A stretch of 64,000 bases of DNA, taken from NCBI GenBank assembly GCA_947626065.1, contig CANQQT010000003.1, positions 45,618 to 109,617 on the forward strand, read 5' to 3'. This stretch comes from an uncultured Clostridia bacterium. GTDB lineage: Bacteria; Bacillota; Clostridia; Oscillospirales; CAG-272. The notes beneath the pieces are model-generated. The model searched no databases. It saw nothing but the letters and a program-made list of their open reading frames with translations, and was not told the DNA's origin. Below are positions 7,593 through 37,804 of this stretch, one piece after another (positions within the stretch are counted from its first letter, which is position 1; each line of letters begins with the position of its first letter). The translations under genes were made by a program, and so were the position numbers.

Positions 7593-10538
7593 ATGTCCAC
7601 TGTTTACTCCGTAGGAATCGATATCGGCTCCACTACGGCCAAGCTCGTGATTACCGAGAACGGCGAGCCGACTCTCTGCCGTTACGAGCGCCATATGTCT
7701 CAAGCGAGGGGAAAGCTGACGGAGCTTCTTCGCGACGCTGAGGGAATTCTTCAGGGCAAGCGCTTTACCGCCGCCATTTCCGGCTCGGCGGGCATGGGAT
7801 TGGCGCAGGCGGCGGGGGTTCCCTTTGTTCAGGAGGTTTTCGCCACCGCGGAGGTGGTGAAAAGGAAGGAGCCCGACGCCTCCTGCGTCATTGAACTCGG
7901 CGGCGAGGACGCCAAGGTCATTTTTTTTGAGGGCGGACGCGACGAGAGAATGAACGGAAGCTGCGCGGGGGGTACCGGCGCCTTCATCGATCAGATGGCG
8001 GTTTTGCTCAATATGACGGTAGACGAGATGGACAGGGCCAGCCTCTCTGCCGAGAGAATTTATCCGATTGCCTCCCGGTGCGGGGTTTTCGCCAAGTCCG
8101 ACATTCAGCCCCTTCTGAATCAGGGGGCCTCCAAGCCGGACATCGCCGCCAGCATCTATCAGGCGGTCGTCAATCAGACGGTGGCGGGGCTCGCGCAGGG
8201 GAGAAAGATTCGCGGAAAGGTGCTTTTCCTCGGCGGGCCGCTCTATTACTGCCAGGGGCTCCGGCTCCGCTTCCGGCAGACGCTCGGCCTCGATGAGGAG
8301 CACGCGAAATTTCCGGAATACGGACGCCATGCCGTCGCGCTCGGCGCGGCGCTCTGCATAGGGAAGGAATATACCTACGAAGAGCTTCTTTTGGCGGTTG
8401 AAAAAAGCGCCGACATCAAGACGAGCCGCCGCCTGCCGCCTCTCTTCGACGGGCCGGAGGATTACGAGGAATTCCGGAAGCGCCACGCGAAGGATACCGT
8501 CGGGGAGGAGGATCTCTCTTCCTATCGCGGGCGGGCGTGGCTCGGGGTCGACTGCGGAAGCACGACGACCAAGCTGGTTTTGATTTCAGAGGAGGGGAAG
8601 ATTCTCTACTCCTATTACAGCCCCAATCTCGGCAACCCCGTTTCGGTCGTGAAGGAACAGCTTGAGAAAATCTATGCCCTCTGCGGAGACAGAACCGTCA
8701 TCTGCGGCGCGGCCTCGACGGGCTATGGGGAAACGCTGATACAGAATGCCTTTTCCCTCGACGAGGGCGTCGTCGAGACGATTGCCCACTATACGGCGGC
8801 GGCCCGTTTCCGTCCCGACGTCGATTTTATCCTCGACATCGGCGGACAGGACATCAAATGCTTCAAAATCCGGAACGGGGCCATCGACTCCATCATGCTC
8901 AACGAGGCCTGTTCCTCCGGGTGCGGCTCCTTTATCGAGACCTTCGCCCGGTCGATGGGCTATTCGGCGGCGGAATTTGCCGCCAAAGGGATCACCGCCA
9001 AGGCGCCGGTCAACCTCGGCACCCGCTGTACCGTGTTCATGAACTCCTCCGTCAAGCAATCCCAGAAGGAAGGGACGACGGTGGAGGATATTTCGGCGGG
9101 GCTTTCGGTGAGCGTCGTCAAAAACGCGCTCTATAAGGTCATCCGCGCCCATTCCCCGGAGGAGCTGGGGAAAAACATCGTCGTTCAGGGGGGAACCTTT
9201 CTCAACGACGCGGTTTTACGGGCCTTTGAAAAAGAGGTGGGAACCGAGGTTATCCGTCCCTCGGTCGCGGGACTGATGGGGGCCTACGGGGCGGCGCTTC
9301 ACGCCATGCGCTTCTCGAAGAGCAAAATTCTCACCGCCGAGGCCCTGAAGCATTTCGTCCACCGTTCCACCGGCACCGTTTGTCAGGGCTGTGGGAATCA
9401 CTGCCGCCTGACGGTCAATACCTTTGACGGGGGCCGCCGTTTCATTTCGGGAAATCAGTGCGAAAGGGGTCTCGGAGGCCGTCGGGACGAATCGCTCCCC
9501 GACCTCTACGCCTTCAAGCAGTCGTTTCTCACCTCCCTATCCGAAAAAGAAGAAGGGGACGGGAGGCGCGGAACGGTCGGGATTCCGCTGGCCCTCGGGA
9601 TGCTGGAGCAGGCGCCCCTCTGGAAGGCGCTTTTCTCCTCCCTCGGCTATCGGGTGATTTTTTCAGGCCTCTCGACCCGCGCCACCTACGAAAAGGGACA
9701 GCTGACGATTCCCTCCGACACGGCCTGCTATCCGGCGAAGATCATGCACGGCCATATGCTGGAGCTGATTGAGAAAAAGCCGGATTTCCTCTTCTATCCC
9801 TGCCTGAGCTATAACGTCGACGAGGGAAGGTCGGACAACTGCTACAACTGCCCGATCGTAGCCTATTATCCCGAGCTTCTCAGGGGCAATATGGACGATC
9901 TGAAATCCGTCCGCTTCCTCTCTCCTTTTCTCAACCTGAACCGCCCTAAAGTTCTGGCAAAGGGCCTCCGGAAGGCGCTGAACAGGGAAGGGGAGAAGAT
10001 AGGACGCCGCGAGATGAAAACAGCGGTGAAAAAGGGCCTTGCCGCCTATCGGGCCTATCGAGAGGCGGTTGCCGAAGAGGGAAAACGCGCCGTCCGCTAT
10101 GCAAAGGAGCAGGGAAAGCGCGTGATGATTCTCGCCGGTCGGCCCTATCACTGCGACCCCGAAATCAATCACGGGATCGATAAGCTGGCCGCCTCCCTCG
10201 GCTTCGTCGTGGTGAGCGAAGACAGCGTCTGCGACATGGCGGAGCCCCCACGCGTCGGGGTTCTGAATCAGTGGACGTACCACTCCCGCCTCTATGCCGC
10301 GGCGGCCTATGCCACCGAGCATCCCGATACCGAGCTTGTACAGCTGGTCTCCTTCGGGTGCGGAATCGACGCGATCACTTCCGACGAGGTGCGGGCGATT
10401 TTGGAGTCCCACGGGAAGCTCTACACGCAGATCAAAATCGATGAGATCACCAACCTCGGCGCCGTCCGCATTCGTCTGCGGAGTCTGATTGGAGCCGTCG
10501 AGGAGAGGGAGAGAAACCGAAAAGAAAGCGAGGGCTGA
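7593..10538 (+). CDS. BcrAD/BadFG-type double ATPase (CoA-substrate-specific enzyme activase family) with C-terminal extension
   Basis: The 981-aa ORF contains two acetate/sugar-kinase-like ATPase starts (VGIDIGSTTAKLV and LGVDCGSTTTKLV). It also has a Cys motif (CQGCGNHC) and a DUF2229-like C-terminal part. Confidence 0.85.
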   Translation: MSTVYSVGIDIGSTTAKLVITENGEPTLCRYERHMSQARGKLTELLRDAEGILQGKRFTAAISGSAGMGLAQAAGVPFVQEVFATAEVVKRKEPDASCVIELGGEDAKVIFFEGGRDERMNGSCAGGTGAFIDQMAVLLNMTVDEMDRASLSAERIYPIASRCGVFAKSDIQPLLNQGASKPDIAASIYQAVVNQTVAGLAQGRKIRGKVLFLGGPLYYCQGLRLRFRQTLGLDEEHAKFPEYGRHAVALGAALCIGKEYTYEELLLAVEKSADIKTSRRLPPLFDGPEDYEEFRKRHAKDTVGEEDLSSYRGRAWLGVDCGSTTTKLVLISEEGKILYSYYSPNLGNPVSVVKEQLEKIYALCGDRTVICGAASTGYGETLIQNAFSLDEGVVETIAHYTAAARFRPDVDFILDIGGQDIKCFKIRNGAIDSIMLNEACSSGCGSFIETFARSMGYSAAEFAAKGITAKAPVNLGTRCTVFMNSSVKQSQKEGTTVEDISAGLSVSVVKNALYKVIRAHSPEELGKNIVVQGGTFLNDAVLRAFEKEVGTEVIRPSVAGLMGAYGAALHAMRFSKSKILTAEALKHFVHRSTGTVCQGCGNHCRLTVNTFDGGRRFISGNQCERGLGGRRDESLPDLYAFKQSFLTSLSEKEEGDGRRGTVGIPLALGMLEQAPLWKALFSSLGYRVIFSGLSTRATYEKGQLTIPSDTACYPAKIMHGHMLELIEKKPDFLFYPCLSYNVDEGRSDNCYNCPIVAYYPELLRGNMDDLKSVRFLSPFLNLNRPKVLAKGLRKALNREGEKIGRREMKTAVKKGLAAYRAYREAVAEEGKRAVRYAKEQGKRVMILAGRPYHCDPEINHGIDKLAASLGFVVVSEDSVCDMAEPPRVGVLNQWTYHSRLYAAAAYATEHPDTELVQLVSFGCGIDAITSDEVRAILESHGKLYTQIKIDEITNLGAVRIRLRSLIGAVEERERNRKESEG

Positions 10539-22399: not shown

Positions 22400-22428
22400 T
22401 TGACAAGCGGGTCGAAAAGGTGTATAAT
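22400..22428 (+). promoter_or_regulatory. Sigma-A promoter upstream of tRNA-Ser
   Basis: TTGACA (22400..22405), a 17-nt spacer ending in TG, then TATAAT (22423..22428). Confidence 0.65.
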
Positions 22429-22594
22429 AAAACTGTATTTTCCCCTCCGAAAAGGAAGAAAGTTCCTTTTTTATGGGAAAATCGGGATCTTCCGGGAGCG
22501 GCCTTCCAAAAAGAAGGACGCTGAAAGCGGCGCTTTTTTAAAAATTATCCTTAAAAGAAGAGCGTCTTTTCCTCACCGGGGGATCGGAAAATAA

Positions 22595-22683
22595 GGAGAG
22601 GTATCGAAGCGGTCATAACGAGGCGGTCTTGAAAACCGTTTGGGCGTAAGCCCACAAGGGTTCGAATCCCTTCCTCTCCGCCA
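22595..22683 (+). tRNA. tRNA-Ser (anticodon UGA), CCA encoded
   Basis: The cloverleaf was folded by hand. The acceptor stem pairs GGAGAGG with CCUCUCC and the anticodon stem-loop is GCGGU-CUUGAAA-ACCGU. There is a long variable arm, the T arm is AAGGG-UUCGAAU-CCCUU, and the molecule ends with discriminator G plus CCA. Confidence 0.9.
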
Positions 22684-22820: not shown

Positions 22821-22952
22821 GAAATTTTTTGATTTTTCCCGAAAATTCAGAAGTCATGTACCAAAAACGTCCCATTCGACGAGGTATTCTTAATAAGGCA
22901 GAGAAACAAAGGGGCGCGGAGCGATGCTCCGCCGTTGAGAGGAGAGGGCCCG

Positions 22953-23636
22953 ATGATTTACGTTGTTTCCGATTTGCACGGATGCTATGAAAAATATCAA
23001 AATCTGCTCAAAACCGTTTCCCTCGGGGACGTGGACACGCTGTACGTGCTGGGGGACGTGATCGACCGGGGCGACGGCGGAATCGAGATTCTGTTCGACA
23101 TGAGGTCGCGCCCCAACGTGAGGCCGCTGATTGGAAACCACGAGTCGCTGGCGCTCGGGGCGATGAAGCGGATCCTCCGCGATTCGCTGGATGAAAGGGC
23201 CGTAAGCAAAACAAAGGCCGGCGTACTCTGGCGGATGTCGGACGGCGAACCCACAATTCAAGCGTTCTGTGCGCTCACGCGGGACAGGCAGCAGGCGATC
23301 GTCGACTATATCGAATCCTTCGGCATTTATGAGGAGCTTACGGTGAACAGTCGGAAGTTTCACCTGTCGCATACCCTTCCTAGTTACGATCCGGCGATCC
23401 CGATCCACGACGTCACCTTTCTGGAATTTCTCTTCGGGGAGGTGGATTACACGAAGGTTTACGCGAGCGATACGCTGTTTGTGACGGGTCACACGCCGAC
23501 GGGGCTGATCGATCCTGCCAGCGCCGGGCGCATCTGGCGGGGAAACCATCATATCGCCATCGACTGCGGAGCAGTTTTCGGCCATCCGCTCGGGTGCCTT
23601 TGTCTGGATACGCTGGAAGAGATTTATATCGAGTAA
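22953..23636 (+). CDS. Serine/threonine protein phosphatase (lambda/PrpA-type metallophosphoesterase)
   Basis: Motifs DLHG, GDVIDRG, GNHE and GHTP occur in the canonical order. The start was taken at MIYVVSDLHG. Confidence 0.8.
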   Translation: MIYVVSDLHGCYEKYQNLLKTVSLGDVDTLYVLGDVIDRGDGGIEILFDMRSRPNVRPLIGNHESLALGAMKRILRDSLDERAVSKTKAGVLWRMSDGEPTIQAFCALTRDRQQAIVDYIESFGIYEELTVNSRKFHLSHTLPSYDPAIPIHDVTFLEFLFGEVDYTKVYASDTLFVTGHTPTGLIDPASAGRIWRGNHHIAIDCGAVFGHPLGCLCLDTLEEIYIE

Positions 23637-23744: not shown

Positions 23745-23774
23745 TTGACAAGGAATAGGCTTTTGTTTTATAAT
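23745..23774 (+). promoter_or_regulatory. Sigma-A type promoter for the PolC-like/WYL operon
   Basis: TTGACA (23745..23750), an 18-nt spacer, then TATAAT (23769..23774). It is followed by a leader of about 200 nt. Confidence 0.55.
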
Positions 23775-23978
23775 AAAAATGAAGAAGTGGCATCGTCGCC
23801 GTTCACTGCAAATCGGATTGTAAAGAGAAAAACATCATGGAATTCAAAATGGAAAAGCGGCTTTTCCTACCGGGAAGGTTGACAACGGCTTCCCCGTCGC
23901 CCATTCGTCCTGCAAGGGATCGGCTGTAAGCCCGGTCCGGATGGATCCATAAACCTTTATAGAGAAGAGGAACAGAAT

Positions 23979-26510
23979 ATGAAACAGCGAGTAGAACTGC
24001 ATACGCACACCAATATGTCGGCCATGGACGGGGTTGACTCGGCGGAACGGTTAATCCGAAGGGCAACCGAACTGGGGATAAAATCCATGGCCATCACCGA
24101 CCGAAACGGCGTGCAGGCGTTTCCGGAGGCGGCCAAAGCGGTCGCGAGGCTTGCCGCACAGGGGTACGACGTTCGCGTTCTCTATGGGATGGACGTAGAC
24201 TGCGCGGACGGCGGCCACGCTTTCCGGATGACGATTTTGGCGCAGACCAAAGAGGGCCTGAAAAACCTTTACCGTCTGGTTACGCTGAGTCACACAAAAA
24301 ATACCGGCGAAGAGGAGCCGCAGATTTCAAAAGACGAGCTGACGGCGCACAGGAAGGGACTGCTTTTCGGCAGCGGCGGCCGTGAGGGCGAGCTGATGCA
24401 GGCCGTCCTGTCCGGACAGCCGTGGAGTCGCCTTTTGGAAATTGCAGGATTTTATGATTATCTGGAAATCCAGCCTTTTCTCGATCGGGAAGCGAACCAA
24501 ACGGTCGTGCGGTTGGGAGAAGCGCTGAATATTCCCGTCTGCGCAACGGGAAACGTGTATTTCTGTTCGCCGGAGGATGAAATCCTGCGGCATATTCTGC
24601 ACGATGCCTCCGCAAAGGCCGACGCGGAGGAGCCGATGCCCTTCTATTTGCGCTCGACTGAGGAGATGCTGGCGGATTTCGCCTATTTGGGAGCAGAAAC
24701 CGCCGAGAAGCTCGTGGTGGAAAATCCCAATCGCATTGCCGATCAAATCGAGTCGCTCCGTCCCATCCCCGAAGGAGTTTATCCGCCGCAAATCGACCAT
24801 GCGGAAGAGCGGCTTTCCACCCTTGTGCGGCAGAGCGCAAAAGCACGGTACGGCGAACCGCTGCCTGAGATTGTGCGCGCGCGGATGGAAAGAGAGCTGT
24901 CTCAAATTGAGGCGCACGGATATGCCGGGTTTTATCTGACCGCGCAGAGGATTGTGGAGGATTCCGAGCGGCACGGATATCATGCCTTTTCCCGCGGCTT
25001 GGTCGGCTCTTCACTGGTCGCCCATCTTGCCGGAATCGCGGACGTCAATCCCCTGCCGCCCCATTACGTTTGCCCTCACGGTCACTTTACAGAATTTTTG
25101 TCGGACGGAAAAGTCGGCTCTGGGTTCGATCTGCCGGAAAAGGCTTGCCCGAAGTGCGGAGCCGCTTTGAATCGGGACGGTCAGGATATTCCCGCAGAAG
25201 TATTTGTCGGTCTTAACGGAGAGAAAGCGCCGGATATTGATCTGAACCTTGCGCCGGCGTATCTGCCTGCCGCTTATGAATTCCTGCAATCGCAGTTCGG
25301 CAAAGAACGTGTTCTGAGGGGTGGAACGATCGACACGGTTCTTGGGAAACGCGCCGTTCGATATGTGCTCAGTTATGCGGAGAAGCATTCCCTCCCCTTG
25401 GACGAAGAGGAAATCTCGCGTTTGGCAAAACGCATTGAGGGGGTGAAGCGCGGAACCGGATGCCATCTGGGCGGGTGGATGGTGATTCCCGCCGCTTTCG
25501 ACGCGGAAGATTTTACGCCTGTACAAATCCCCGAAACCGATCCCTCAAGCGCCGCGCTTGCCACTCATTTTGATTTTTACAGCCTTTCCGGTCTGTTCAA
25601 GCAGGATCTTTTGGGCCACGACGTGCTGTCTGTTTACCGGGCGTTGGAGGATGCGACCGGCGTCTCCGTCAACGACGTACCGATGTGTGATCCAGAGGTA
25701 TACAGCCTGTTTACCTCGCCGGAGGCGCTCGGAGTCACCCCGGAGGACATCGATTGCGAAACCGGCACCCTTGGTCTGCCGGAGCTGGAAACCGAATTCG
25801 TCCGGCAAATGCTGATGGGGACCCGGCCGAAAAGCTTCTCCGACCTGATGAAGATCTCCGGCTTGTCCCACGGGACCGGTGTGTGGAAGGACAATGCCCA
25901 ACAGCTACTCGCCGAGGGGATTTGCTCCCTTTCCGACGTGATCGCCCTGCGCGACGATGTGATGCTGTATCTGATGCGCAAAGGATTTCCGACAGAAAAG
26001 GCATACGAGGTGATGGATGATATCCGGAAAGGGCAGAGCCATCGGCTACTCCCGGAGGTTCGTGGGGAATTGCTTGCCGGCGGCGTACCGGAGTGGTACC
26101 TCGACAGCTGCGCGAAAATCCGTTATCTGTTTCCGAAAGCCCATGCCGCATCTTATATGATGGCGGCGGTAAGGCTGGGATGGTATAAGATCCATTATCC
26201 GGCGGACTTTTATGCCGCCTGCCTCGGCGCCCGTTTTGACTCGGTGACCGAGGACGAGCCTGTCGCCCTGTCGGTTTTGTTAGGCGGAGCGGAGGCGATT
26301 TGCCGCGCGTATGCCGATTGCAAAAAGGCGCAGAACGACGGTTTCCTTTCAGAGCGGGGAACCGCCGTTTACCACCTCGCCTATGAGGCGGTACAGCGCG
26401 GGATATCCTTCCTGCCTGCCGATTCGGAAAAAGCCCCTGCGACCGGCTTTTACGCAGAAAACGGGGTCGTCCTCTGCCACTCGAGCTTCGGAAAAAGGAG
26501 TCGTACGTGA
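23979..26510 (+). CDS. PolC-type DNA polymerase III alpha core paralog lacking N-terminal, OB and 3'-5' exonuclease domains
   Basis: The 843-aa ORF carries PolC-like motifs along its length. The PHP domain starts at VELHTHTNMSAMDG, and palm motifs are APDIDLNL and GVKRGTGCHLGGWMVIP. HFDFYSLSGLFKQDLLGHD follows, and fingers motifs are KISGLSHGTGVW and FPKAHAASYMMAAVRLGWYK. No DEDDh exonuclease segment is present where PolC carries it. Confidence 0.85.
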   Translation: MKQRVELHTHTNMSAMDGVDSAERLIRRATELGIKSMAITDRNGVQAFPEAAKAVARLAAQGYDVRVLYGMDVDCADGGHAFRMTILAQTKEGLKNLYRLVTLSHTKNTGEEEPQISKDELTAHRKGLLFGSGGREGELMQAVLSGQPWSRLLEIAGFYDYLEIQPFLDREANQTVVRLGEALNIPVCATGNVYFCSPEDEILRHILHDASAKADAEEPMPFYLRSTEEMLADFAYLGAETAEKLVVENPNRIADQIESLRPIPEGVYPPQIDHAEERLSTLVRQSAKARYGEPLPEIVRARMERELSQIEAHGYAGFYLTAQRIVEDSERHGYHAFSRGLVGSSLVAHLAGIADVNPLPPHYVCPHGHFTEFLSDGKVGSGFDLPEKACPKCGAALNRDGQDIPAEVFVGLNGEKAPDIDLNLAPAYLPAAYEFLQSQFGKERVLRGGTIDTVLGKRAVRYVLSYAEKHSLPLDEEEISRLAKRIEGVKRGTGCHLGGWMVIPAAFDAEDFTPVQIPETDPSSAALATHFDFYSLSGLFKQDLLGHDVLSVYRALEDATGVSVNDVPMCDPEVYSLFTSPEALGVTPEDIDCETGTLGLPELETEFVRQMLMGTRPKSFSDLMKISGLSHGTGVWKDNAQQLLAEGICSLSDVIALRDDVMLYLMRKGFPTEKAYEVMDDIRKGQSHRLLPEVRGELLAGGVPEWYLDSCAKIRYLFPKAHAASYMMAAVRLGWYKIHYPADFYAACLGARFDSVTEDEPVALSVLLGGAEAICRAYADCKKAQNDGFLSERGTAVYHLAYEAVQRGISFLPADSEKAPATGFYAENGVVLCHSSFGKRSRT

Positions 26511-26576
26511 AAGCGGTGGCAGAAGCCTTTCGGAAATTCAAGTAAACGGCGACCTTTGCCGTAGGAAGGAAGAACC

Positions 26577-27563
26577 ATGGACAGCTTTGAACCGAAAAAA
26601 CTGGCCCTGTTGCGCCTTTGGCAGATTCTGTGGGAGCACAGCGACGACAAGCACCCGCTGACGCAGGAGGAAATGGCAGAGCGGCTACAGAAGGAATATG
26701 GGATCGACCTTGAGCGCAAGGCGATCGGCCGGAATCTCTCGCTACTGCGCGAAGCCGGCGCCGAAATCGAATCCTCCCGGGAGGGGAGCTATCTGCTCTG
26801 CCGGGATTTTGAGGACTCAGAGCTTCATCTGCTGATCGACGGCGTACTCTGCAGCAAGCACGTCACCGCCAAGCATTCGGCGGATCTGATTGACCGGCTC
26901 TGTAGGCTCTCAAACAAATATTTCCGTTCCCACGTCAAAAATATTTGTTCGGTCGGGGACTGGAGCAAAACCGAAAATCCGGCGCTGTTTTACAACATTG
27001 AGATGATCGACACGGCAATCGAACGAAAATGCCGCATCGGTTATGACTACAATAAAATCGGAATCGACAAAAAGCTGCATAATTCCTCTTATCAAGTGGT
27101 GACTCCCTACCAAATGCTGTTGCACAATCAGCGGTATTATCTGATGGCCTACAGCGAATATTGGGGAAACATGGTCTTTCACCGGTTGGATCGCATCACC
27201 GATATGAGCTTGACGGAGGAAAAGGCGACGCCGCTGTCCAAGGTCCCGGGATACGAAAACGGAATGGATTACAAAAGGCTCGCCACCGCCATGCCGTATA
27301 TGTACTCCGACAAGCCGGAGCGGATCACCTTCCTTGCCGACGTCGGAATCGTCGATCAGATCGTCGATTGGTTCGGCGACGATGTGCGGTTTCTAAAATG
27401 TCCGGATGAAGGGAAGGTGGAGGCGACCGTTACCGCCAGCCCCAATGCGATTGTGCATTGGGCGATGCAGTATATCGCTCACGTGGAAATCATATCGCCG
27501 GAATCGCTGAGGGAGACCGTCAGAAAGGCGCTGGAAAAGGGGCTGGAAAAGTATAATCAATAA
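26577..27563 (+). CDS. WYL-domain transcriptional regulator (HTH-WYL-WCX architecture)
   Basis: The N-terminal wHTH reads LTQEEMAERLQKEYGIDLERKAIGRNLSLLREAG. The WYL-domain core reads NQRYYLMAYSEYWGNMVFHRLDRITDM, and a C-terminal extension follows. Confidence 0.85.
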   Translation: MDSFEPKKLALLRLWQILWEHSDDKHPLTQEEMAERLQKEYGIDLERKAIGRNLSLLREAGAEIESSREGSYLLCRDFEDSELHLLIDGVLCSKHVTAKHSADLIDRLCRLSNKYFRSHVKNICSVGDWSKTENPALFYNIEMIDTAIERKCRIGYDYNKIGIDKKLHNSSYQVVTPYQMLLHNQRYYLMAYSEYWGNMVFHRLDRITDMSLTEEKATPLSKVPGYENGMDYKRLATAMPYMYSDKPERITFLADVGIVDQIVDWFGDDVRFLKCPDEGKVEATVTASPNAIVHWAMQYIAHVEIISPESLRETVRKALEKGLEKYNQ

Positions 27564-27768: not shown

Positions 27769-28443
27769 ATGCACAAAGGCGTATTTATCGGAAAACACGC
27801 GGCAGAACAGAAAAAGAAAGTACTGATTTTAGGGGAATCTCACCATGTAGGCGATTACAACAGGGATTGTCTGGGGCAAGAGGCGGAATATACCACCGAA
27901 TCGGTTATTCGAGAGGATTATTATCGAGACCCATACAATCCCAAATACCGGATTTTCGATAAGATTATCAAGTCCTTCGGATACGACCCGGAGCTTCCGG
28001 GCGCAAGGGAGAATTTCTGGGAAACGGTCTATTTCGGGAATTACATCCCCGTATTATGTGGCATAAAAACGGGTAATGCCGCAGAGTTATTGGAGAATGC
28101 CGAAAATCGCAGGCAGTATAACAACCATCTCTTTGAATTTGCAAACGAAAAGGGTATTGACGTGATCTTCTGCTTTAGTCGGCTGGTTTATAAGAAATTG
28201 CCCGAATTTTCCGAAGATGCGAAGGTGCGTGCTTTTGAGCAAGTGGATAGTATAAAATGCGGAAAGATCGGAAAAGTCGACGACCGTATTGACCGATGCC
28301 GTTATTGCGCCGACTCCGAACATACCGCTGTGGACGTTTTGTTGAATAAGAGCCTGACCGTATTCGGTATGCGCCATCCGTCCTCAGGAGGCGGTTTTAA
28401 GCCTTCAAATTATGCGGATAAGTTAAAATCGGAGCTGAAATAA
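27769..28443 (+). CDS. Hypothetical protein in an AT-rich patch; weak uracil-DNA-glycosylase-superfamily-like motifs
   Basis: The 224-aa ORF has visibly lower GC than its neighbours. VLILGESHH near the N-terminus and VFGMRHPSS near the C-terminus resemble UDG motifs A and B. This assignment is tentative. Confidence 0.5.
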   Translation: MHKGVFIGKHAAEQKKKVLILGESHHVGDYNRDCLGQEAEYTTESVIREDYYRDPYNPKYRIFDKIIKSFGYDPELPGARENFWETVYFGNYIPVLCGIKTGNAAELLENAENRRQYNNHLFEFANEKGIDVIFCFSRLVYKKLPEFSEDAKVRAFEQVDSIKCGKIGKVDDRIDRCRYCADSEHTAVDVLLNKSLTVFGMRHPSSGGGFKPSNYADKLKSELK

Positions 28444-28533: not shown

Positions 28534-28561
28534 GGCCCGAGGCCATCCCGGGCCTTTTTTT
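28534..28561 (+). terminator. Intrinsic terminator after the orphan gene
   Basis: The stem pairs GGCCCG (28534..28539) with CGGGCC (28549..28554) and is followed by a T7 run. Confidence 0.6.
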
Positions 28562-28666: not shown

Positions 28667-29959
28667 ATGAACACATTCGATCGGATTATCGGGTATTCCT
28701 CCATCAAAAAAGAGCTAATGCAGATCAGCGACACGCTGAAGAACCGGGAGGCCTACGAAAAGCTCGGCGTTTCCGCGCCGAGAGGACTGCTCCTCTACGG
28801 GGAGCCGGGCCTCGGGAAATCCCTGATGGCGAGCGCCGTGATTGCGGACAGCGGCCTCCGCTATTTTCTCCTCCGCAAGGATCGGCCGAACGGGGATTTT
28901 GTCAAGGAGATCAAGACGGTTTTCAAGGAAGCGAAGGAAAACGCCCCGGCCATCGTCTATCTTGACGATATGGACAAATTCGCAAACGGGGACGAGCGCC
29001 ACCCCGACGCTGAGGAATACGTCACGGTACAGTCCTGTATCGACGAGGTGAAGAAAGAAGCGGTTTTCGTGCTGGCGACGGCCAACAATATCCGCTGTCT
29101 GCCGCGTTCTCTTCTGCGCGCCGGTCGGCTCGACCGCAAAATCAAGGTGGAGCCGCCGCACGGGCGGGACGCGGAGGAGATCGTCGCTTACTACGTCCGG
29201 AGCAAGAAGTTTGCCCGCGACATCGACGTGAAGGCCGTCGCGCACTTGATGGACGGATGCTCCTGCGCGGAGCTTGAAACGGTCATCAACGAGGCCGGGC
29301 TCTATGCGGGATATGAGCGGGCGGAGCAGATTACGCTGGAGCATTTCATGGCGGCCTATCTGCGCACCGTCATGAACGAACCGGCGTCGGAGGACGATTT
29401 TGGCGAGGATTTGTCCTCCGAGGAGGAAATCCGCCGGCAGGTGGTCTGGCATGAAGCCGGGCACGCCGTCGTTTCGGAGGTTCTCTGTCCGGGAAGCGTC
29501 ACGCTCGTCAGCGCACGCAGCGGCGCGGGGCGCGGCGGTTTTACCAATTATTACAACGACCGCACAAGGTCGGGTCTTTACTGGCGGAAAAGCCGCATCA
29601 TCGGCTCGCTGGGCGGAATTGCCGCCACCGAGCAGAAATTCGGCCTTGTGGAGGAGGGCGGGAGCCGTGACCTCGACGCCGCGTTCCGGGCCGTTCGGAA
29701 TTCGGTGACAGAGGACTGCGCCTGCGGGCTTCATCTCCATTCGGGCGGGTATGAAGACTCCCAGCGCCTGGTGGCGGAGCAGGAGCAGGCGATTTCCTCC
29801 GAGGTGGAAAAGTATTTCCGCAAGGCCAAGGAAATCCTTGCGCTCAACGCGGAATTTCTGGAAAAGCTCGCCGCCGCGCTTTCCGAAAAGTCGCTTCTCT
29901 CGGCGGTGGATATCGAAAGAATCCGCTCGGAGTGCAAAATCGTGTCCGTCGCGATATAG
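28667..29959 (+). CDS. Soluble FtsH-like AAA+ / M41 metalloprotease-domain protein without transmembrane anchor
   Basis: Walker A is GEPGLGKS and the second region of homology is ATANNIRCLPRSLLRAGRLDRKI. The M41 HEXXH motif is WHEAGHAV, followed by GGSRDLDAA. No N-terminal TM helices are present. Walker B reads VYLDDMD. Confidence 0.8.
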   Translation: MNTFDRIIGYSSIKKELMQISDTLKNREAYEKLGVSAPRGLLLYGEPGLGKSLMASAVIADSGLRYFLLRKDRPNGDFVKEIKTVFKEAKENAPAIVYLDDMDKFANGDERHPDAEEYVTVQSCIDEVKKEAVFVLATANNIRCLPRSLLRAGRLDRKIKVEPPHGRDAEEIVAYYVRSKKFARDIDVKAVAHLMDGCSCAELETVINEAGLYAGYERAEQITLEHFMAAYLRTVMNEPASEDDFGEDLSSEEEIRRQVVWHEAGHAVVSEVLCPGSVTLVSARSGAGRGGFTNYYNDRTRSGLYWRKSRIIGSLGGIAATEQKFGLVEEGGSRDLDAAFRAVRNSVTEDCACGLHLHSGGYEDSQRLVAEQEQAISSEVEKYFRKAKEILALNAEFLEKLAAALSEKSLLSAVDIERIRSECKIVSVAI

Positions 29960-30059: not shown

Positions 30060-30239
30060 TCAGTCGTTCTTTCCGTCTTCTTTCGCCGCGCAGTGCTTTG
30101 CCTTTGCCCGGTTATAGGCCTTGGGATCCGGAGGCTTTCTCGTAACCGGGTTTAAGGCGCCCCATCCGCGGCGGCGCTTTTGGTTTTCCTCACTCTGCCT
30201 TTTCTTTGACAGCTTTTGAAAGGGTACAAATTTTTTCAT
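30060..30239 (-). CDS. Small basic protein (59 aa) translationally coupled to rtcB
   Basis: It is below the ORF-track size cutoff. Its ATG overlaps the rtcB stop as ATGA. The translation is MKKFVPFQKLSKKRQSEENQKRRRGWGALNPVTRKPPDPKAYNRAKAKHCAAKEDGKND. The NPVTRKP..KAYNR core resembles small proteins I recall from other gut Firmicutes. Confidence 0.45.
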   Translation of the reverse strand: MKKFVPFQKLSKKRQSEENQKRRRGWGALNPVTRKPPDPKAYNRAKAKHCAAKEDGKND

Positions 30240-31387
30240 CTTCGTTTGCCTTCTTTTTGGGGGCGGCGTTTTCTCCCGGGATGCTCGCTTCCTTTAAAAT
30301 TATAGATCGGGCGGATGACACTCTCTACCCGCACGGTTGCCGTGACGTTCTTTAAAAGCTCCTCCATAGACTTATAGGCCATGGGGCATTCGTCCAGGGT
30401 GTCGGCGTCGGCCGTGGTCGTAAAAATGCCCGCCATTTCCTTTTTAAAAGCGGAGACGGTAAAGGACGCCCTTGCCTCTTTCCTGCTCATCAGGCGCCCC
30501 GCGCCGTGCGGAGCGCTTTGGTTCCAATCCTCGTTTCCGAGGCCCGTGCAGATGAGCGCGCCGTCTCTCATATTGATGGGAATCAGCAGTTTTTCCCCCG
30601 CTTTGGCGGAAACAGAGCCTTTTCGCAGGATTCCCGCCTGTAGGTCGATGTAATTATGCACAGTGGAAAAGCTGTCCTCTTCCGTCAGGTGCATCCCGTC
30701 AAGGATTTCTTCCTTTATGATCCTACGGTTCAGCGCGGCGAATTCCTGCATCAGCTCCATGTCGTGCAGATAGCTTGCCATGCTCTGCCCGGTGAGATAG
30801 GCAAGCGCATACGGAACGTCGGTTTGCCCTTCGGCACATAAATCGCGGTAGGCCCGATCCTGATAATATTCCGCCACACAGAGCCCCAGATTCCGGCTCC
30901 CGGTGTGAATCACCAGATACAGGCCGTCCTCGCCTTTGTCCACCTCGATAAAATGATTGCCGCCGCCCAGCGTGCCGAGGCTTTCCAAAGCGCGCCGGGT
31001 ATCCACCTTGCGGAAACAGCGCAGCCGCTCGATATCGATTTTTTCGTGGCCGCGGGGCGGCCTCTCGCGCACCGAAAAGCCGCTGGGAATCTGTTGTCGG
31101 ATAAAGCTGTCCAGCCTCGAAAGATCGATGCGCTTTTCCTTGAGCTTTACCGTTTCCATCCCGCAGCCGATATCCACGCCTACCAGATTCGGCACGATTT
31201 TGTCGGTCACCGTCATGGTGGTGCCGATGGTACAGCCCTTTCCGGCGTGCACGTCCGGCATGATCCGGATTTTGCTGTTTTCGGCGAAGGGCTGATTGCA
31301 GAGCGCGGTAATCTGTCCAATCGCGGAGGGCTCCGCCACGTCGGCAAAAACCTTGGCCGAGGCGTATTTTCCATTGATTTCAAACAT
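30236..31387 (-). CDS. rtcB: RNA-splicing ligase RtcB
   Basis: Metal and GMP-histidine motifs are present: MPDVHAGKG, GCGME, HTGSRNLG, HNY and APHGAGR. Confidence 0.92.
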   Translation of the reverse strand: MFEINGKYASAKVFADVAEPSAIGQITALCNQPFAENSKIRIMPDVHAGKGCTIGTTMTVTDKIVPNLVGVDIGCGMETVKLKEKRIDLSRLDSFIRQQIPSGFSVRERPPRGHEKIDIERLRCFRKVDTRRALESLGTLGGGNHFIEVDKGEDGLYLVIHTGSRNLGLCVAEYYQDRAYRDLCAEGQTDVPYALAYLTGQSMASYLHDMELMQEFAALNRRIIKEEILDGMHLTEEDSFSTVHNYIDLQAGILRKGSVSAKAGEKLLIPINMRDGALICTGLGNEDWNQSAPHGAGRLMSRKEARASFTVSAFKKEMAGIFTTTADADTLDECPMAYKSMEELLKNVTATVRVESVIRPIYNFKGSEHPGRKRRPQKEGKRR

Positions 31388-31524: not shown

Positions 31525-32547
31525 CTATTCGGTTTTCAGCCCCATTTCCCGCAGCATACGGATAAACTCGTCTTTATCTATCGCCCCGTCTGCGAGGGCT
31601 TTTTGCAGTCCCGGGCCAAAGTGGACAACCGGTGTTCCCCAGCCCCTCATGCGGGGATAAAGCTCTTCCGGCGTCCAGCCGCGATTGCACCAAAGGCGCT
31701 GATTGTTGCCCATCGCGAAGACGGCCTCCAGCAGCGTTTCCGTCTGTTTGGCGCTGAGCTCCACGCCCATGGCGTTCAGACTCGCAAAAAAAGCGTCGAT
31801 GGAAGCGTTTTGTATTCCGTGGCCGATGTTTCTCGGGGTTTTGAGATCGTCGATCAGGTACTGCACGGCGTTGACGCTGTGTAGCTTTTCCTCAAATTCC
31901 TTTGCTTGTTGCGGATTTGCCTGGCACCCGGAAATTTCCCCGCGCAGACAGCGTAGCGCAAAGTCATCGTTTGGGCTTATATAGGAAAAATCCCGCAGAT
32001 ACTTGCCGACATACGGGCAGGGGTGAAGGTTTCCGTCCTCGTCGGTATATTCGGCAAGCGTGGATTTGAGGTCGCTTAAAAGACGGCGCAGTTTTTTCTC
32101 CTGCGGGCTTTCCGGAGGGGATACGAAGGACAGCAGATTGGCCGGAACGTAATAAGGCTTTCCCGTTGCCTCGTCCTGTACGGCGTACAGGTCGTGGAAT
32201 TTCCCGTAACGGTGAGTGATAAGAGACCGATGTGCGACGATACGAAGGGAATCCCTCCGCTTTTCTTCGGAGTATACCTCGTCAGCTTCAAAAACGTAAA
32301 ACGGCAGCTCCTCCCGGCGCAAAATTCCCAAAGCCTGATAGAGCTCCCGCCGGTGGAGAAGGACGGTTTCCGCTTTTGTCGAGAGCTCCCGATAGACGTC
32401 CCAGGCGTCTTCGGAAGGAATCACGCCGTAAAGATTGGCGCAGGCCGAAAAGAAGGTGCGCAGAAACGCGATTTGCTCCTCTTTCAGTCCGGCTTCTTCA
32501 TACAGGCGGGCGAGGCTTTTTTCGGATAGCGGTTTCGGATAGGACAT
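31525..32547 (-). CDS. Hypothetical protein (340 aa), upstream of rtcB
   Basis: It is a long non-repetitive ORF with a GGAGG RBS (aggaggaagtcccATG). I recognise no motifs in it. Confidence 0.6.
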   Translation of the reverse strand: MSYPKPLSEKSLARLYEEAGLKEEQIAFLRTFFSACANLYGVIPSEDAWDVYRELSTKAETVLLHRRELYQALGILRREELPFYVFEADEVYSEEKRRDSLRIVAHRSLITHRYGKFHDLYAVQDEATGKPYYVPANLLSFVSPPESPQEKKLRRLLSDLKSTLAEYTDEDGNLHPCPYVGKYLRDFSYISPNDDFALRCLRGEISGCQANPQQAKEFEEKLHSVNAVQYLIDDLKTPRNIGHGIQNASIDAFFASLNAMGVELSAKQTETLLEAVFAMGNNQRLWCNRGWTPEELYPRMRGWGTPVVHFGPGLQKALADGAIDKDEFIRMLREMGLKTE

Positions 32548-32795: not shown

Positions 32796-34013
32796 TTACT
32801 GAGAATCCTCCGTGCCCTTCTCCTGCGGGGCCTCTGCTTGCTCAGACGCTTTCGACGCCGAAGGAGTCTCCGAATCCGCAGACGCTCCCTGCGGAGCCTT
32901 TTCCTGCTCTTCCAGCTGTCGCAGAAGCTCTTCCTGCTGGCGGAGCTGTTGCTGGTGCAGTCTTTCCTGCTCCTCTCTCTGCTGGCGGAGCTGTTGCTGA
33001 CGGAGCTCTTCCTGCTCCTGCAGCTGTTGACGACGGAGAAGCTCCTGCTGCTGTCCGATCTGCTGTTGACGAAGCTGTGCCTGCTCCTCCTTCTGCCTGT
33101 CGAGGAGCTCCTGCTGTTGAGCCAACTGCTGTTGGCGGAGCTGTTGCAAAACGGCCTGTTGCTGTTGCTTCATCTCCTCCTGCTGGCGGAGCTGTTGTTG
33201 ACGGAGCTGATCCTGCTGAGCCCTCTGCTGTTGCTTCAGCTGTTCCTGCTGTTCCGCATAGGGCAGGGCGGGATCGATGGAGAGCGGCGGGACGGCGACT
33301 TCGGCGGGCGCTTTTCTCTCCTGCGGCCTTTGTACCTGCTGGGGCTGAGGCTGAGGCGGCTGATATTGCGGCTGGCGCACCGGCGGCTGGTAGGGAGGCT
33401 GTCCGTTTGCCGCGGGGGCCTGCTGAGGCTGTTGAGGCTGTTGCGGCTGCTGCGGTTGTTGTGTCTTTTGCGGTTGCTGAGTCTGCGCATAAGCGGTCTG
33501 CGCGTAGGCGGCCTGCTGAGCCTGCGCGTAGGCGACGGCGGCCTCTTTGTTCCGCACGCTGTCGACGACGGTACAGATCAGCCGGATGAGGAACAGGGCG
33601 GCGATGACGATGGCCATGGGGAACATCATCTTGTAGACGAGAGTCAGAATCTCTTCGCCCTCGTTCGTCGGCGGGACGAGGTCATAGCACAGGAGGGTCG
33701 ATCCCGCGCCGAAGAGAAGCCCCACGAAGGAGGACCACACCTTGGGGATAATCGCCCAGAGGACGGAAACGGCGCTGACGACTACCGCAATCCAGAATTC
33801 GATGCGAACCTTCGACAGTTCCTCAGGGAAAAAGGACGAATCCTCGAGCATATCAAGGAAAGAAAGCTCATCGGTGCCAAAGATGGTTGACACCGACACC
33901 ATCGGCAAAAACCAGAAGACGGTGAGAGCAATCGTTGCCGCTACGGTGAGAAGGGTGAAAATCACCGTCGCCGCAGAGGTCTTTTTCTTCGGGGGCGCAT
34001 AGTAGGCGTTCAT
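32796..34013 (-). CDS. Membrane protein (4 TM) with about 250-aa glutamine-rich coiled-coil-like tail
   Basis: An N-terminal TM bundle is followed by QQPQ repeats and many LRQQQ/QQEEL heptad-like repeats. The Leu-rich + ORF 32754..33890 is the antisense CTG/CAG shadow. Confidence 0.7.
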   Translation of the reverse strand: MNAYYAPPKKKTSAATVIFTLLTVAATIALTVFWFLPMVSVSTIFGTDELSFLDMLEDSSFFPEELSKVRIEFWIAVVVSAVSVLWAIIPKVWSSFVGLLFGAGSTLLCYDLVPPTNEGEEILTLVYKMMFPMAIVIAALFLIRLICTVVDSVRNKEAAVAYAQAQQAAYAQTAYAQTQQPQKTQQPQQPQQPQQPQQAPAANGQPPYQPPVRQPQYQPPQPQPQQVQRPQERKAPAEVAVPPLSIDPALPYAEQQEQLKQQQRAQQDQLRQQQLRQQEEMKQQQQAVLQQLRQQQLAQQQELLDRQKEEQAQLRQQQIGQQQELLRRQQLQEQEELRQQQLRQQREEQERLHQQQLRQQEELLRQLEEQEKAPQGASADSETPSASKASEQAEAPQEKGTEDSQ

Positions 34014-35587: not shown

Positions 35588-37804
35588 ATGGAACTCACGT
35601 GGAGCGACTTAATCGAAAGGGCGAAGGCGGATGATCAGGATGCCTTCTATCAATTGTATCAGAACAGCTACGACGCTGTTTACCGCACGGTAAAATCCAT
35701 GATCCGGGACGACGATATGGCGATGGACATTGTGCAGGACTCCTTCGTCAAGGGCTTTTCCAACCTGTCCGAGCTGGAAAGCCCCGACAGCTTCGTCTCG
35801 TGGATGCGGAGAATCGCCGTCAACAAGGCGAAGGACTGGTTTAAAAAGAAACAGGAAATCTCCTTCTCCCAGATGGCGGACGAGGAGGGCAACGAGCCGG
35901 ATTTTGAGGACGAACGCGCCGAGAATATGCCGGAGGCAGTCGTCGACAGAAACGAAACGGCCCGTCTTGTCGACGAGATTCTGAACGGCCTCTCCGACGA
36001 ACAGCGTATAGCCGTCGGTATGTATTACTATCAGAATATGTCGGTGGCGGAGATTGCCGAGGAGCTGGCCGTCAGCGAAAATACCGTCAAGAGCCGTCTG
36101 AACTACGGGCGGAAGAAGATCAAAACCAGCGTGGAGGAGCTGGAGAAAAAGGGCACCAAGCTCTACTCCCTCTCCCCGGTGGCCTTCCTTGTCTTCCTTT
36201 TCCGGAATCAGATCGCGCAGGCGGCGGTGGGAGGCGCGCCGGAGGCGGCCTTCGGGGCCATTATGGCCAAGACCGGAGTCGCTGTCGGAAACGCCGCAGC
36301 GGCAAGTGCAGCAGGAGCCGAAGCCGCCGCAAGCACCGCCATGGGCGCGGGAACCTCAGGTGTTGCCGGGGCCGCGACAAGTGCCGCCGGTGCCGCCATG
36401 AGCGCAGGGGCTACCGGAGCCGCCACAAGTGCCGCGACCGGAGCCGCCGTGAGCGCCGGGGCCGCTGCGGGTGCCGCGAAGGCGGGAATTTTCGCTTCGC
36501 TGGGCGCCAAAATTCTTGCCGGCGTGCTGGCCGCTTCCGTTGCGGCGGGGGCCGTCGGTCTCGGTCTGCATCTGAGCCACAACGGGGCCAAGCATCCCGT
36601 TATCGAATCGTCCCCGCTGATCGAATCGGTTCCCGGTACCGAAGGGCTTCCCGACCCTCTGCCGGAGAAAGATTTTGTTGTACTTCCGGGGGGATATGAA
36701 GAGGTTAATTCCATAGCGGTTGCCGAGGTGGCCGACGTGCGGGTGTTTCTGGCCAAAAAGGGCGGAAAATGGGGCGTCGTCGACGAAACCGGCAAGGCGG
36801 TAGTTCCCTTTGCCTACGACTGGATTTCCTCTCCCACCGCTTCCGGGCATCTGTTGGCAGAGAGGAAGGATCCCGACACGCAAAAGACGGTTTATACGGT
36901 TTTTGACTCGCAGGGGAAGGAGATTTATACCGCATCTTCCGGTTTCATTCTTGGTAACGATATTTTGATTACCAGAGAGGTATCCTTCGACGGCGGAGGC
37001 GATCTCGACACCTTTTCGCACATTACCGTCAAACAGCTCTCTACCGGGAAAACGGTTCTGACGGAAGAATACGCCTGTGAGGTCAGCATCAGCAATTTTG
37101 AAGACTGCTTTGTCGTTTCCTCCGCAACCGATCCCAACGTGAATTATTCCGGTTACTTGACCTTTTACAACAGCAAGGGAGAGGTTTTGCGTCAAGTGGC
37201 GCTATACGACGCAACGGCAGAATGGTACACCTCCACTTGGGGCGGATATTACGTTTCGGCCGGTAATTACAGTCGGGGCGGCGTGCAGATTACAAGTCTG
37301 GACGGGACGAAAGACTACTCCTACGGTTGGGATGAATTGGAAGACGTCTACTACGAATATTACGACCGGGTGGGTACGCTTATGCTTCTGGGTTGCCGTG
37401 CAGATAATGGCTCCGAGGGAAATGGGAAAGAATATCTTCTGGACATTGCAACCCTGCCGAATTCCTATGAGGACGAAAGCCTTCCCGACTATTTCCTGAC
37501 GGGCAAGGGCTACGACGATATCTCCACTAACGCGCTTGAAAAGTGGTTCCTTGTGACCGACGGGGCAAAGCAGGGCTTCCTCTCCCGGGACGGCAAAACC
37601 GAGCGGTTGTACGACAGCGCCGGGGATTTCGTCCGGGGCAAGGCCGTTGTGCGGGACGGCGGCGAGGTCTACGTCGTCGACGATTCGATGAACGTCATCT
37701 CCGATAAGCTGACCGACGGCTATACCTCCGTGAAAACGCTGGGCGAAGGCCTCTACGGCGTGGAAAAGGACGGGGTGTGGTATCTGGCGGTGTATAAGGG
37801 ATAA
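35588..37804 (+). CDS. ECF-type sigma-70 factor fused to a TM helix, Ala-rich linker and extracytoplasmic WG-repeat domain
   Basis: Region 2 reads DAFYQLYQNSYDAVYRTV...DIVQDSF and region 4 reads LSDEQRIAVGMYYYQNMSVAEIAEELAVSENTVKSRLNYGRKKI. A hydrophobic segment and an A/G/S-rich linker follow. The C-terminal part carries KKGGKWGVVDETGKAVVPFAYDWI-type WG repeats. Confidence 0.8.
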   Translation: MELTWSDLIERAKADDQDAFYQLYQNSYDAVYRTVKSMIRDDDMAMDIVQDSFVKGFSNLSELESPDSFVSWMRRIAVNKAKDWFKKKQEISFSQMADEEGNEPDFEDERAENMPEAVVDRNETARLVDEILNGLSDEQRIAVGMYYYQNMSVAEIAEELAVSENTVKSRLNYGRKKIKTSVEELEKKGTKLYSLSPVAFLVFLFRNQIAQAAVGGAPEAAFGAIMAKTGVAVGNAAAASAAGAEAAASTAMGAGTSGVAGAATSAAGAAMSAGATGAATSAATGAAVSAGAAAGAAKAGIFASLGAKILAGVLAASVAAGAVGLGLHLSHNGAKHPVIESSPLIESVPGTEGLPDPLPEKDFVVLPGGYEEVNSIAVAEVADVRVFLAKKGGKWGVVDETGKAVVPFAYDWISSPTASGHLLAERKDPDTQKTVYTVFDSQGKEIYTASSGFILGNDILITREVSFDGGGDLDTFSHITVKQLSTGKTVLTEEYACEVSISNFEDCFVVSSATDPNVNYSGYLTFYNSKGEVLRQVALYDATAEWYTSTWGGYYVSAGNYSRGGVQITSLDGTKDYSYGWDELEDVYYEYYDRVGTLMLLGCRADNGSEGNGKEYLLDIATLPNSYEDESLPDYFLTGKGYDDISTNALEKWFLVTDGAKQGFLSRDGKTERLYDSAGDFVRGKAVVRDGGEVYVVDDSMNVISDKLTDGYTSVKTLGEGLYGVEKDGVWYLAVYKG

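Follow-up and report, generated by a model that had tools for sequence, protein, structure and literature searches.

A gene of an uncultured Clostridia bacterium (Oscillospirales; CAG-272) raises the question of what the core of a replicative DNA polymerase would do outside the replisome. The gene (23979..26510, + strand) lies within a stretch of 64,000 nucleotides (hereafter the window; positions 45,618 to 109,617 of contig CANQQT010000003.1, GenBank assembly GCA_947626065.1), and encodes a protein of 843 amino acids that consists of the PHP, palm, thumb and fingers of PolC (~1440 amino acids in Bacillus subtilis and Geobacillus kaustophilus) with no N-terminal domain (NTD), OB domain, exonuclease (Exo), (HhH)2 module or clamp-binding tail; it is here called mini-PolC. 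An earlier note on this DNA, made from the sequence alone, had described a stripped-down PolC paralog apparently co-transcribed with a WYL regulator, and had offered three interpretations: a Firmicute analogue of the damage-inducible ImuB/DnaE2 mutasome, a relic replication module of a mobile element, or part of a defence island. That interpretation is partly supported. The explanation considered moderately probable as a whole is that the gene belongs to a family of reduced-core mini-PolCs and serves as an accessory gene of a variable island, with the WYL protein as its neighbour and not its sensor.

Derivation of the protein from PolC, which the earlier note had read from its motifs, is borne out by profile and structure comparisons. 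The quoted motifs are all present in the open reading frame (ORF): VELHTHT (residues 5-11), CPHGH (365-369), APDIDLN (417-423), GVKRGTGCHLGGW (488-500), FKQDLLGHD (540-548), KISGLSHGTGVW (625-636) and FPKAHAASY (718-726). The sole Pfam matches are PHP (residues 6-159), DNA_pol3_alpha (from residue 278) and DNA_pol3_finger (residues 559-699). The score against the NCBIfam PolC model NF001688 is above the cutoff (928.9 bits versus 873), the match consisting of two stretches that skip the exonuclease at profile positions ~410-615, and the score against a second PolC model, TIGR01405, is below the cutoff (873.9 bits versus 1043.45). The best solved structure by sequence is PDB 3F2B, an engineered G. 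kaustophilus PolC (deltaN-deltaExo), in which residues 115-962 of the 1041-residue chain align with residues 3-828 of mini-PolC (E=3.5e-217); the AlphaFold2 (AF2) model of mini-PolC (pLDDT 73.9, with low confidence at the Zn finger, residues 360-412) matches the same structure with a TMq of 0.79. The domain span of the engineered construct is nearly equal to that of mini-PolC, but the construct has an OB domain (chain residues 1-114) and a C-terminal HhH part (chain residues 963-1041), and mini-PolC has neither. Over the core of PHP, palm, thumb and fingers, mini-PolC is homologous to canonical PolC at 42-51% identity, and the two have in common the finger motifs, the Zn-finger region and the catalytic aspartates of PDIDLN and KxD. 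In an alignment with 107 full-length PolCs, D419 and D421 of PDIDLN (25233..25241, +) and D543 of KQD (25605..25607, +) coincide with the invariant DDD, and the loss of catalytic aspartates that the earlier note had named as a possible objection is not seen. The Zn-finger region (CPHGH...CPKCG, 25071..25160, +) has three Cys and a nearby His, its second Cys being replaced; CPHGH (25071-25085), remarked on in the note, is real and is peculiar to the window protein, since CxxC is found in that half of the finger in every short or full-length relative.

The same alignment confirms that the N-terminal and OB domains and the exonuclease are missing, and extends the list of losses beyond what the note had stated. 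No Pfam match to RNase_T, OB or HHH_6 was found in the protein even at E<=10. Only 7 residues precede the HxH motif, compared to 340-358 in full-length PolCs, and the PHP domain (23979..24803, +; ~residues 1-275) runs unbroken across the site of the PolC exonuclease, where there is a clean alignment gap of ~210 residues. The protein stops soon after the fingers, as had been noticed, ~6 residues beyond the start of (HhH)2 with the tail ...SSFGKRSRT, whereas canonical PolCs run on past that point (...IRxPFSAVKGLG...SQMSLF); no mini-PolC residues align beyond the start of HhH, and the protein thus has neither the (HhH)2 module nor the QxxLF peptide that binds the clamp at the C-terminus of PolC. 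The nine-residue PHP metal motif, which Timinskas et al. used to call PHP proofreaders active (PMC12926913), is HHDHEH[C/H]DH in full-length PolCs and HHDRDRGNY in mini-PolC (H8, H10, D17, R42, D72, R83, G134, N192 and Y194), with six of the nine positions substituted. With the PHP metal ligands substituted and the DEDDh exonuclease missing, both routes of proofreading are predicted to be unavailable to mini-PolC. At the level of aligned residues, these comparisons show descent from PolC with loss of the modules that would tether the enzyme to template, duplex, clamp and replisome, and with retention of the catalytic triad. A tblastn search of the whole window in any frame with canonical PolC found no other N-terminal, exonuclease or C-terminal PolC coding sequence, and a 17-codon tblastn extension before the ATG, considered as relic coding sequence, shows no real similarity.

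Mini-PolC is presumably not the replicase. Its nearest relative in a neighbour-joining (NJ) tree (P0003) comes from the metagenome-assembled genome (MAG) GCA_947626485.1, another contig of which encodes a PolC (L058) of the known exo-less class, with OB, an intact PHP motif, HhH and the C-terminal sequence NQMTLF. Because this sister MAG, subject to the caveat of binning, holds a separate full PolC, mini-PolC can be taken as an accessory paralog, as the note had it, and not as a piece of a split replicase. Exo-less PolCs make up 6% of PolCs and occur in Clostridia and Negativicutes only (Timinskas et al. 2014, PMC3919608). Full-length exo-less PolCs of ~1265 amino acids are widespread in Acutalibacteraceae and relatives (L001, L007, L012, L058 and many others); the members that were checked have the intact PHP motif, HhH and C-terminal QxxLF, and are apparently the replicases of those genomes. 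Mini-PolC resembles them in that the PHP domain is unbroken across the exonuclease insertion site, and differs in that it has none of the NTD, OB, HHDHEHCDH motif (presumed proofreader), HhH and clamp motif that they keep.

Relatives of mini-PolC were sought among 5.8 billion clustered proteins, of which the 8000 best word-sharing candidates were scored. Among these candidates the closest are three clusters of 829-836 amino acids with 66-69% identity to the window protein, followed by two more groups of 811-875 amino acids with 50-55% identity; P0005 (1089 amino acids, 61% identity) keeps the exonuclease and has the same N- and C-terminal truncations. In the NJ tree, 13 N- and C-truncated PolCs group in a single clade that excludes the 107 full-length PolCs, and they have in common the signature substitutions F346L, S354T, T436L and G656A, at positions where >=95% of full-length PolCs agree. 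When a profile made from the short forms was searched against 1.84 billion representatives and gene fragments were discarded, the combined motif table came to ~28 short-PolC clusters, some representatives of which may be partial genes. NTD and OB are missing in all of these clusters, except that P0395 has ~140 N-terminal residues; Exo is kept in only two, HhH in six and terminal QxxLF in none, while the PHP motif is intact in 12 and the catalytic triad complete in 22. Close relatives were also sought in GTDB genomes and JGI metagenome contigs, and none exceeded 51% identity among the matches listed. By pairwise Nei-Gojobori comparison, dN/dS within the clade of the window protein is 0.18-0.30, with proportions of synonymous differences (pS) of 0.51-0.65 at proportions of nonsynonymous differences (pN) of 0.17-0.24; canonical PolC pairs at equal amino-acid divergence have pS of ~0.67-0.96, mostly saturated, and dS in these estimates is near saturation. 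Since pS is lower at equal pN, the short forms gain replacements several-fold faster per synonymous change than canonical PolC. Nevertheless the ORFs are intact, and even between lineages of only ~50% identity their ends differ by no more than a few residues. This pattern indicates relaxed yet clearly non-neutral purifying selection, insofar as it can be read from coding sequences, and mini-PolCs, which form one clade in the tree, are a family of PolC paralogs that is rare and evolves fast, not a one-off.

The regulator that follows the polymerase gene is an HTH-WYL-WCX protein of the BrxR-like, defence-island type (26577..27563, +; Pfam WYL and WCX; PADLOC WYL models). The matches to WYL (E=8e-8) and WCX (E=2e-8) are clear and that to HTH_11 is weak (E=9e-4, below the Pfam gathering score); a PDB sequence search with the protein found PafC only (E=2e-4), and the solved BrxR structures were not matched. 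The intergenic gap of 66 nucleotides (26511..26576, +) contains no promoter-like or terminator-like site, in agreement with the earlier note, and because a perfect promoter stands upstream of the polymerase gene at 23745-23774, read-through into the WYL gene is plausible in the window. The proposal of a specific PolC-WYL module is not supported by the relatives. Adjacency of polymerase and WYL was found only in the window and with P0002 (locus L086) and P0004 (locus L081), where the WYL proteins are 81% identical and the polymerases only 66-69%, and the P0003 locus has no WYL gene. In L081 and L086 the gaps are 120-133 nucleotides long and contain a hairpin after the polymerase stop codon and an 11/12 TG-extended promoter for the WYL gene with a palindrome in its spacer; downstream of WYL these loci have the same nuclease-helicase-MoxR-DUF2201 set as loci that lack PolC. 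The WYL family is well conserved and far more abundant than that of the polymerase: the search gave 3447 hits, over 120 clusters at >=69% identity among them, and a single cluster occurs on 249 contigs. In L174 and L175, which lack PolC, the WYL gene is followed by genes for an Mrr/PD-(D/E)XK-like nuclease, a WH_1/DUF8437 superfamily 2 (SF2) helicase, a MoxR ATPase and DUF2201, and in L177, also without PolC, by GmrSD; no PolC was found near WYL in the sampled polymerase-free loci (L172 and L174-L177). These loci show the WYL family to be independent of the polymerase, and the two genes of the window are probably neighbours and not a sensor-effector pair. The WYL gene of the window has probably lost its own promoter and is read through from that of the polymerase, and such read-through would be a chance feature of the window, not an arrangement kept among relatives. 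In L172 (1-5281), a WYL homolog 81% identical to that of the window is divergent from a three-gene pPIWI_RE (Argonaute-like) module 2-6 kb away; a PHP gene beside this homolog, considered as a remnant of mini-PolC, was rejected as such, having only weak, generic PHP-domain similarity.

WYL genes at the head of varied cassettes are the pattern described for BrxR-type regulators (Picton et al. 2022, PMC9122601). The window WYL protein is like them in its winged HTH-WYL-WCX architecture, and its homologs head variable cassettes and have their own palindrome-bearing promoters; it differs in having no sequence match to solved BrxR and no promoter of its own, and the genes downstream of it in the window (UDG-fold and AAA-M41) are not known defence systems. 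The first of these, directly after WYL, encodes a UDG-superfamily-fold protein of 224 amino acids (27769..28443, +) and is the last gene of a putative polC-WYL-UDG transcript; the next terminator-like hairpin and T-run after WYL (28539..28556, +) lies just past it. The AF2 model (pLDDT 94.5) has Foldseek matches to TDG, MUG and UdgX with a probability of 1.0, and the uncharacterised family comprises 83 homologs, none with a Pfam match. The protein contains the motifs LILGESHH and GMRHPS. As a conserved partner of WYL the gene was rejected, because the one homolog that was looked up (P0295, distant at ~43% identity and present in four near-identical places) is standalone.

The promoter that the earlier note had seen upstream of the polymerase gene is a sigma-70-type site (TTGACA, 18-nucleotide spacer, TATAAT; 23745..23774, +) that matches the consensus at 12/12 positions. 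It appears to be specific to the window, since in L081 and L086 the scan of the stretch upstream of the homologous gene showed no counterpart. A leader of ~200 nucleotides, also described in the note, can be placed at 23775..23978 (+), but it carries no recognisable regulatory RNA and no special fold. It contains the palindrome GGAAAAGCGGCTTTTCC at 23851-23867. A riboswitch or other structured leader was rejected: Rfam gave a single chance snoRNA match (E=0.85, 15.8 bits versus a gathering score of 40), the predicted fold is no better than that of shuffled sequence (z=0.38), and the leader is not conserved in L081, L085 or L086. SOS control of the polymerase was likewise rejected, there being no LexA box near the gene and only one GAACN4GTTC site in the window, at 58051.

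The surroundings of the gene point to a variable island of defence or mobile-element type, the best fit among the three alternatives that the earlier note had offered. The window is chromosomal (spoIIGA, prfB, an aconitase-like gene, secG, argS, rsmB and priA are present), and from tRNA-Ser(UGA) (22595..22683, +) to ~41 kb both GC content and GC content at third codon positions (GC3) are lower, with a GC3 of 0.65 in the polymerase gene versus 0.76-0.79 in core genes; the tRNA gene forms the left edge of this variable stretch. A second perfect 12/12 sigma-70 promoter is located at 22400-22428, ~165 nucleotides upstream of the tRNA gene, with a terminator-like hairpin (22519-22532) in between. 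Several neighbours recur beside other mini-PolCs. A NinI-like calcineurin-type metallophosphoesterase (22935..23636, +; Pfam Metallophos; phrog_246) has counterparts in L085 (72% identical) and L089 (47%); a soluble FtsH-like AAA+/M41 protease with no transmembrane segment and a weak IetA-like match (28667..29959, +) has one in L089 (42%); RtcB 3'-phosphate ligase of a phage-like subfamily (30236..31387, - strand; Pfam RtcB; phrog_1075, 437 bits) has one directly downstream of mini-PolC P0068 in L089 (68%), and is 48-56% identical to RtcB genes in phage-collection records; and a 340-residue protein of unknown function encoded upstream of RtcB (31525..32547, -; no Pfam match) is 55% identical to the product of a 350-residue gene beside the phosphoesterase in L085. 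PDDEXK_4 nucleases are encoded near mini-PolC in L085 and, with weaker matches, in L081 and L086, and DnaB_C-like ATPases and UvrD in L087 and L089.

Other features of these loci can be recorded beside the recurrent neighbours. A PAD_porph (agmatine/peptidylarginine deiminase-like) protein of 265-277 amino acids is encoded just upstream of mini-PolC in three loci of two subclades (L081:8328-9161, L087:4063-4860 and L088:169-618; 61-74% mutual identity). An extracytoplasmic function (ECF) sigma factor with a long C-terminal extension is found in the window (35588-37804, +; WG repeats) and in L081 (4144-7224; LRR_5 repeats), with sigma domains that are 71% identical, and LRR_5 proteins recur in other mini-PolC loci. 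A window gene at 32796-34013 (-) encodes 405 amino acids with a hydrophobic N-terminal half and a Gln/Pro-rich repetitive C-terminal half, and has no match in Pfam, PHROG or PADLOC.

Several observations count against the explanation of mini-PolC as a working accessory polymerase of such an island. The genome was viewed over 64 kb of the window only. Activity is argued from three aspartates, and many otherwise invariant palm residues are altered in the window protein: the invariant PolC sequence GVKRTTGQHPGGM has become GVKRGTGCHLGGW, and is scrambled in P0002 and P0004. At least one catalytic aspartate is lost in six of the ~28 short clusters, including P0013 (YAN) and the close relative P0004 (NDD), an argument that some of the family can do without catalysis. 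PADLOC finds only the WYL gene and the weak IetA-like ATPase, and no complete defence system; no integrase or replication initiator was found in the window; and each neighbour association is known from just two or three loci, which come from related, uncultured Clostridia of the gut and include several rabbit-gut MAGs.

The main rival is a decaying relic of a duplicated or displaced polC that has been trimmed and inactivated and is now either functionless or confined to a non-catalytic (structural or DNA-binding) role. The lost aspartates just described, the dead PHP site and the dN/dS several-fold above that of canonical PolC speak for decay, as does the replacement in the window protein of 25% of the residues that are >=97% invariant in full-length PolCs, many of them in the palm. 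The family is also very rare, with only three other clusters above 60% identity among the best 8000 candidates from 5.8 billion proteins and none in three contig collections among the matches listed, and there are weak hints of neighbours that the window has in common with canonical polC loci, namely spoVT in three (L004-6) and prfB with a phosphoesterase in L052. A relic is unlikely, though a serious contender, given that intact ORFs of 830-870 amino acids persist over lineages only 50-69% identical, with N- and C-terminal boundaries constant within a few residues; that a dN/dS of 0.2-0.3 is well under neutrality; that the signature substitutions are common to the family; that the promoter in the window is perfect; and that 22 of the ~28 clusters retain the catalytic triad. 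Positional orthology with canonical polC was rejected: the upstream synteny of mini-PolC is shared by 0/160 canonical loci, the upstream ORF patterns that were inspected have no counterpart in the window, and rimP/nusA are nearby in 0/160 of the canonical loci.

A second rival makes mini-PolC the replication polymerase of an integrative and conjugative element, an integrative and mobilisable element or a prophage-like element that also has a DnaB-like helicase, with the window copy as a remnant. In L089 the neighbours of P0068 include an integrase and a Tn916-type Xis, a PemK toxin and S24/ImmA regulators, and the N-terminus of P0068 itself is fused to a degraded DnaB_C gene (L089:9574-10400). 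In L087, P0010 is followed by a 698-residue fusion (8065-10161) of a PolIII-alpha palm-like N-terminal part, ~30% identical to mini-PolC, with DnaB_C, and then by a UvrD helicase. The Butyrivibrio proteoclasticus megaplasmid pCY186 has an extra PolC copy that sits next to DnaB within a DnaA/DnaB/Rep module on an accessory replicon, and the island of the window begins, with its lower GC content, at tRNA-Ser. Against this, the PolC of pCY186 is full length (~1490 amino acids) and only ~40% identical to mini-PolC; in the window, the surroundings of the gene contain neither an integrase nor an initiator or helicase, and integration at tRNA-Ser was rejected because neither a repeat of the 3' end of the tRNA gene nor any att-like repeat occurs elsewhere in the window. 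No mini-PolC was found in IMG/VR, the phage collection or PLSDB: tblastn searches of the latter two gave <=46% identity and two scans of IMG/VR gave only DnaE-like matches of 20-25% identity. A phage origin was rejected on two inspected exo-less "Bacteriophage sp." matches, among the top ones, which are unverified host fragments with full-length PolCs of 1230-1269 amino acids, and a plasmid origin on the one inspected plasmid match, which was pCY186. A polymerase with neither clamp-binding motif nor HhH would, moreover, be ill suited to replicating an element, and this rival is quite improbable.

The mutasome proposal, a WYL-controlled, damage- or phage-inducible error-prone module analogous to ImuA/ImuB/DnaE2, is very improbable: like DnaE2 (ImuC), mini-PolC counts as a non-essential paralog within the C family, its PHP site inactivated and neither kind of proofreading left to it (PMC12926913), and WYL follows it in the window with no terminator or promoter between them and is still adjacent to it in P0002 and P0004, but DnaE2 is of the DnaE lineage, keeps HhH and usually OB, has ImuA and ImuB as partners, through the latter of which it reaches the clamp, and is under LexA control, whereas mini-PolC has no clamp-binding motif or LexA box and scores 129.9 bits against the NCBIfam error-prone polymerase model NF004225 (cutoff 939), no Y-family or ImuA/ImuB-like gene was found in the scanned neighbouring ORFs (several small ORFs being outside the scan), and the WYL family heads nuclease, helicase and GmrSD cassettes with no PolC in the sampled loci, has its own promoter in L081 and L086 and is not there at P0003; the dead PHP site is all that the two systems have in common.

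The preferred explanation, that of a reduced-core accessory paralog, implies a particular kind of polymerase. Mini-PolC most likely carries out short-patch DNA synthesis in a distributive manner, with neither clamp nor proofreading, to judge from the modules that it keeps and those that it has lost. Its gene is probably accessory to a variable island of the chromosome, of defence or mobile-element type, the other products of which (the NinI-like phosphoesterase, RtcB, the AAA-M41 protein, PD-(D/E)XK nucleases and helicases) are predicted to heal, seal, cut or unwind nucleic acids. The WYL protein would be a BrxR-like regulator, of a family that elsewhere heads variable cassettes of its own. 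A further-reaching proposal, that mini-PolCs form a new class of functional C-family polymerases, independent of the clamp and devoid of proofreading, which act together with RtcB, the NinI-like phosphoesterase (as an end-healing enzyme) and the PD-(D/E)XK nucleases or helicases as a nucleic-acid repair or anti-phage/anti-toxin module of variable islands and integrative elements of gut Clostridia, some members perhaps being catalytically dead adaptors, is clearly unlikely as it stands.

Exo-less PolCs and extra copies of PolC are already known, and in a survey of C-family polymerases the PHP-Pol3-(HhH)2 core was nearly universal and the OB fold was present in >=97% of members (PMC3919608). No account of a PolC family reduced to PHP and Pol3, with no clamp motif or HhH and often with degenerate active sites, was found in PMC3919608, in PMC12926913 or through full-text literature queries. 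The inference, tempting in the window, that a WYL gene beside a gene of DNA metabolism is the sensor for that gene is corrected by the relatives, and need not hold. If mini-PolCs have no activity, they would offer within the C family a parallel to ImuB and other polymerase homologs that have been inactivated; if they are active, they would display a bare PolC core at work outside the replisome, as a natural counterpart to the engineered 3F2B construct.

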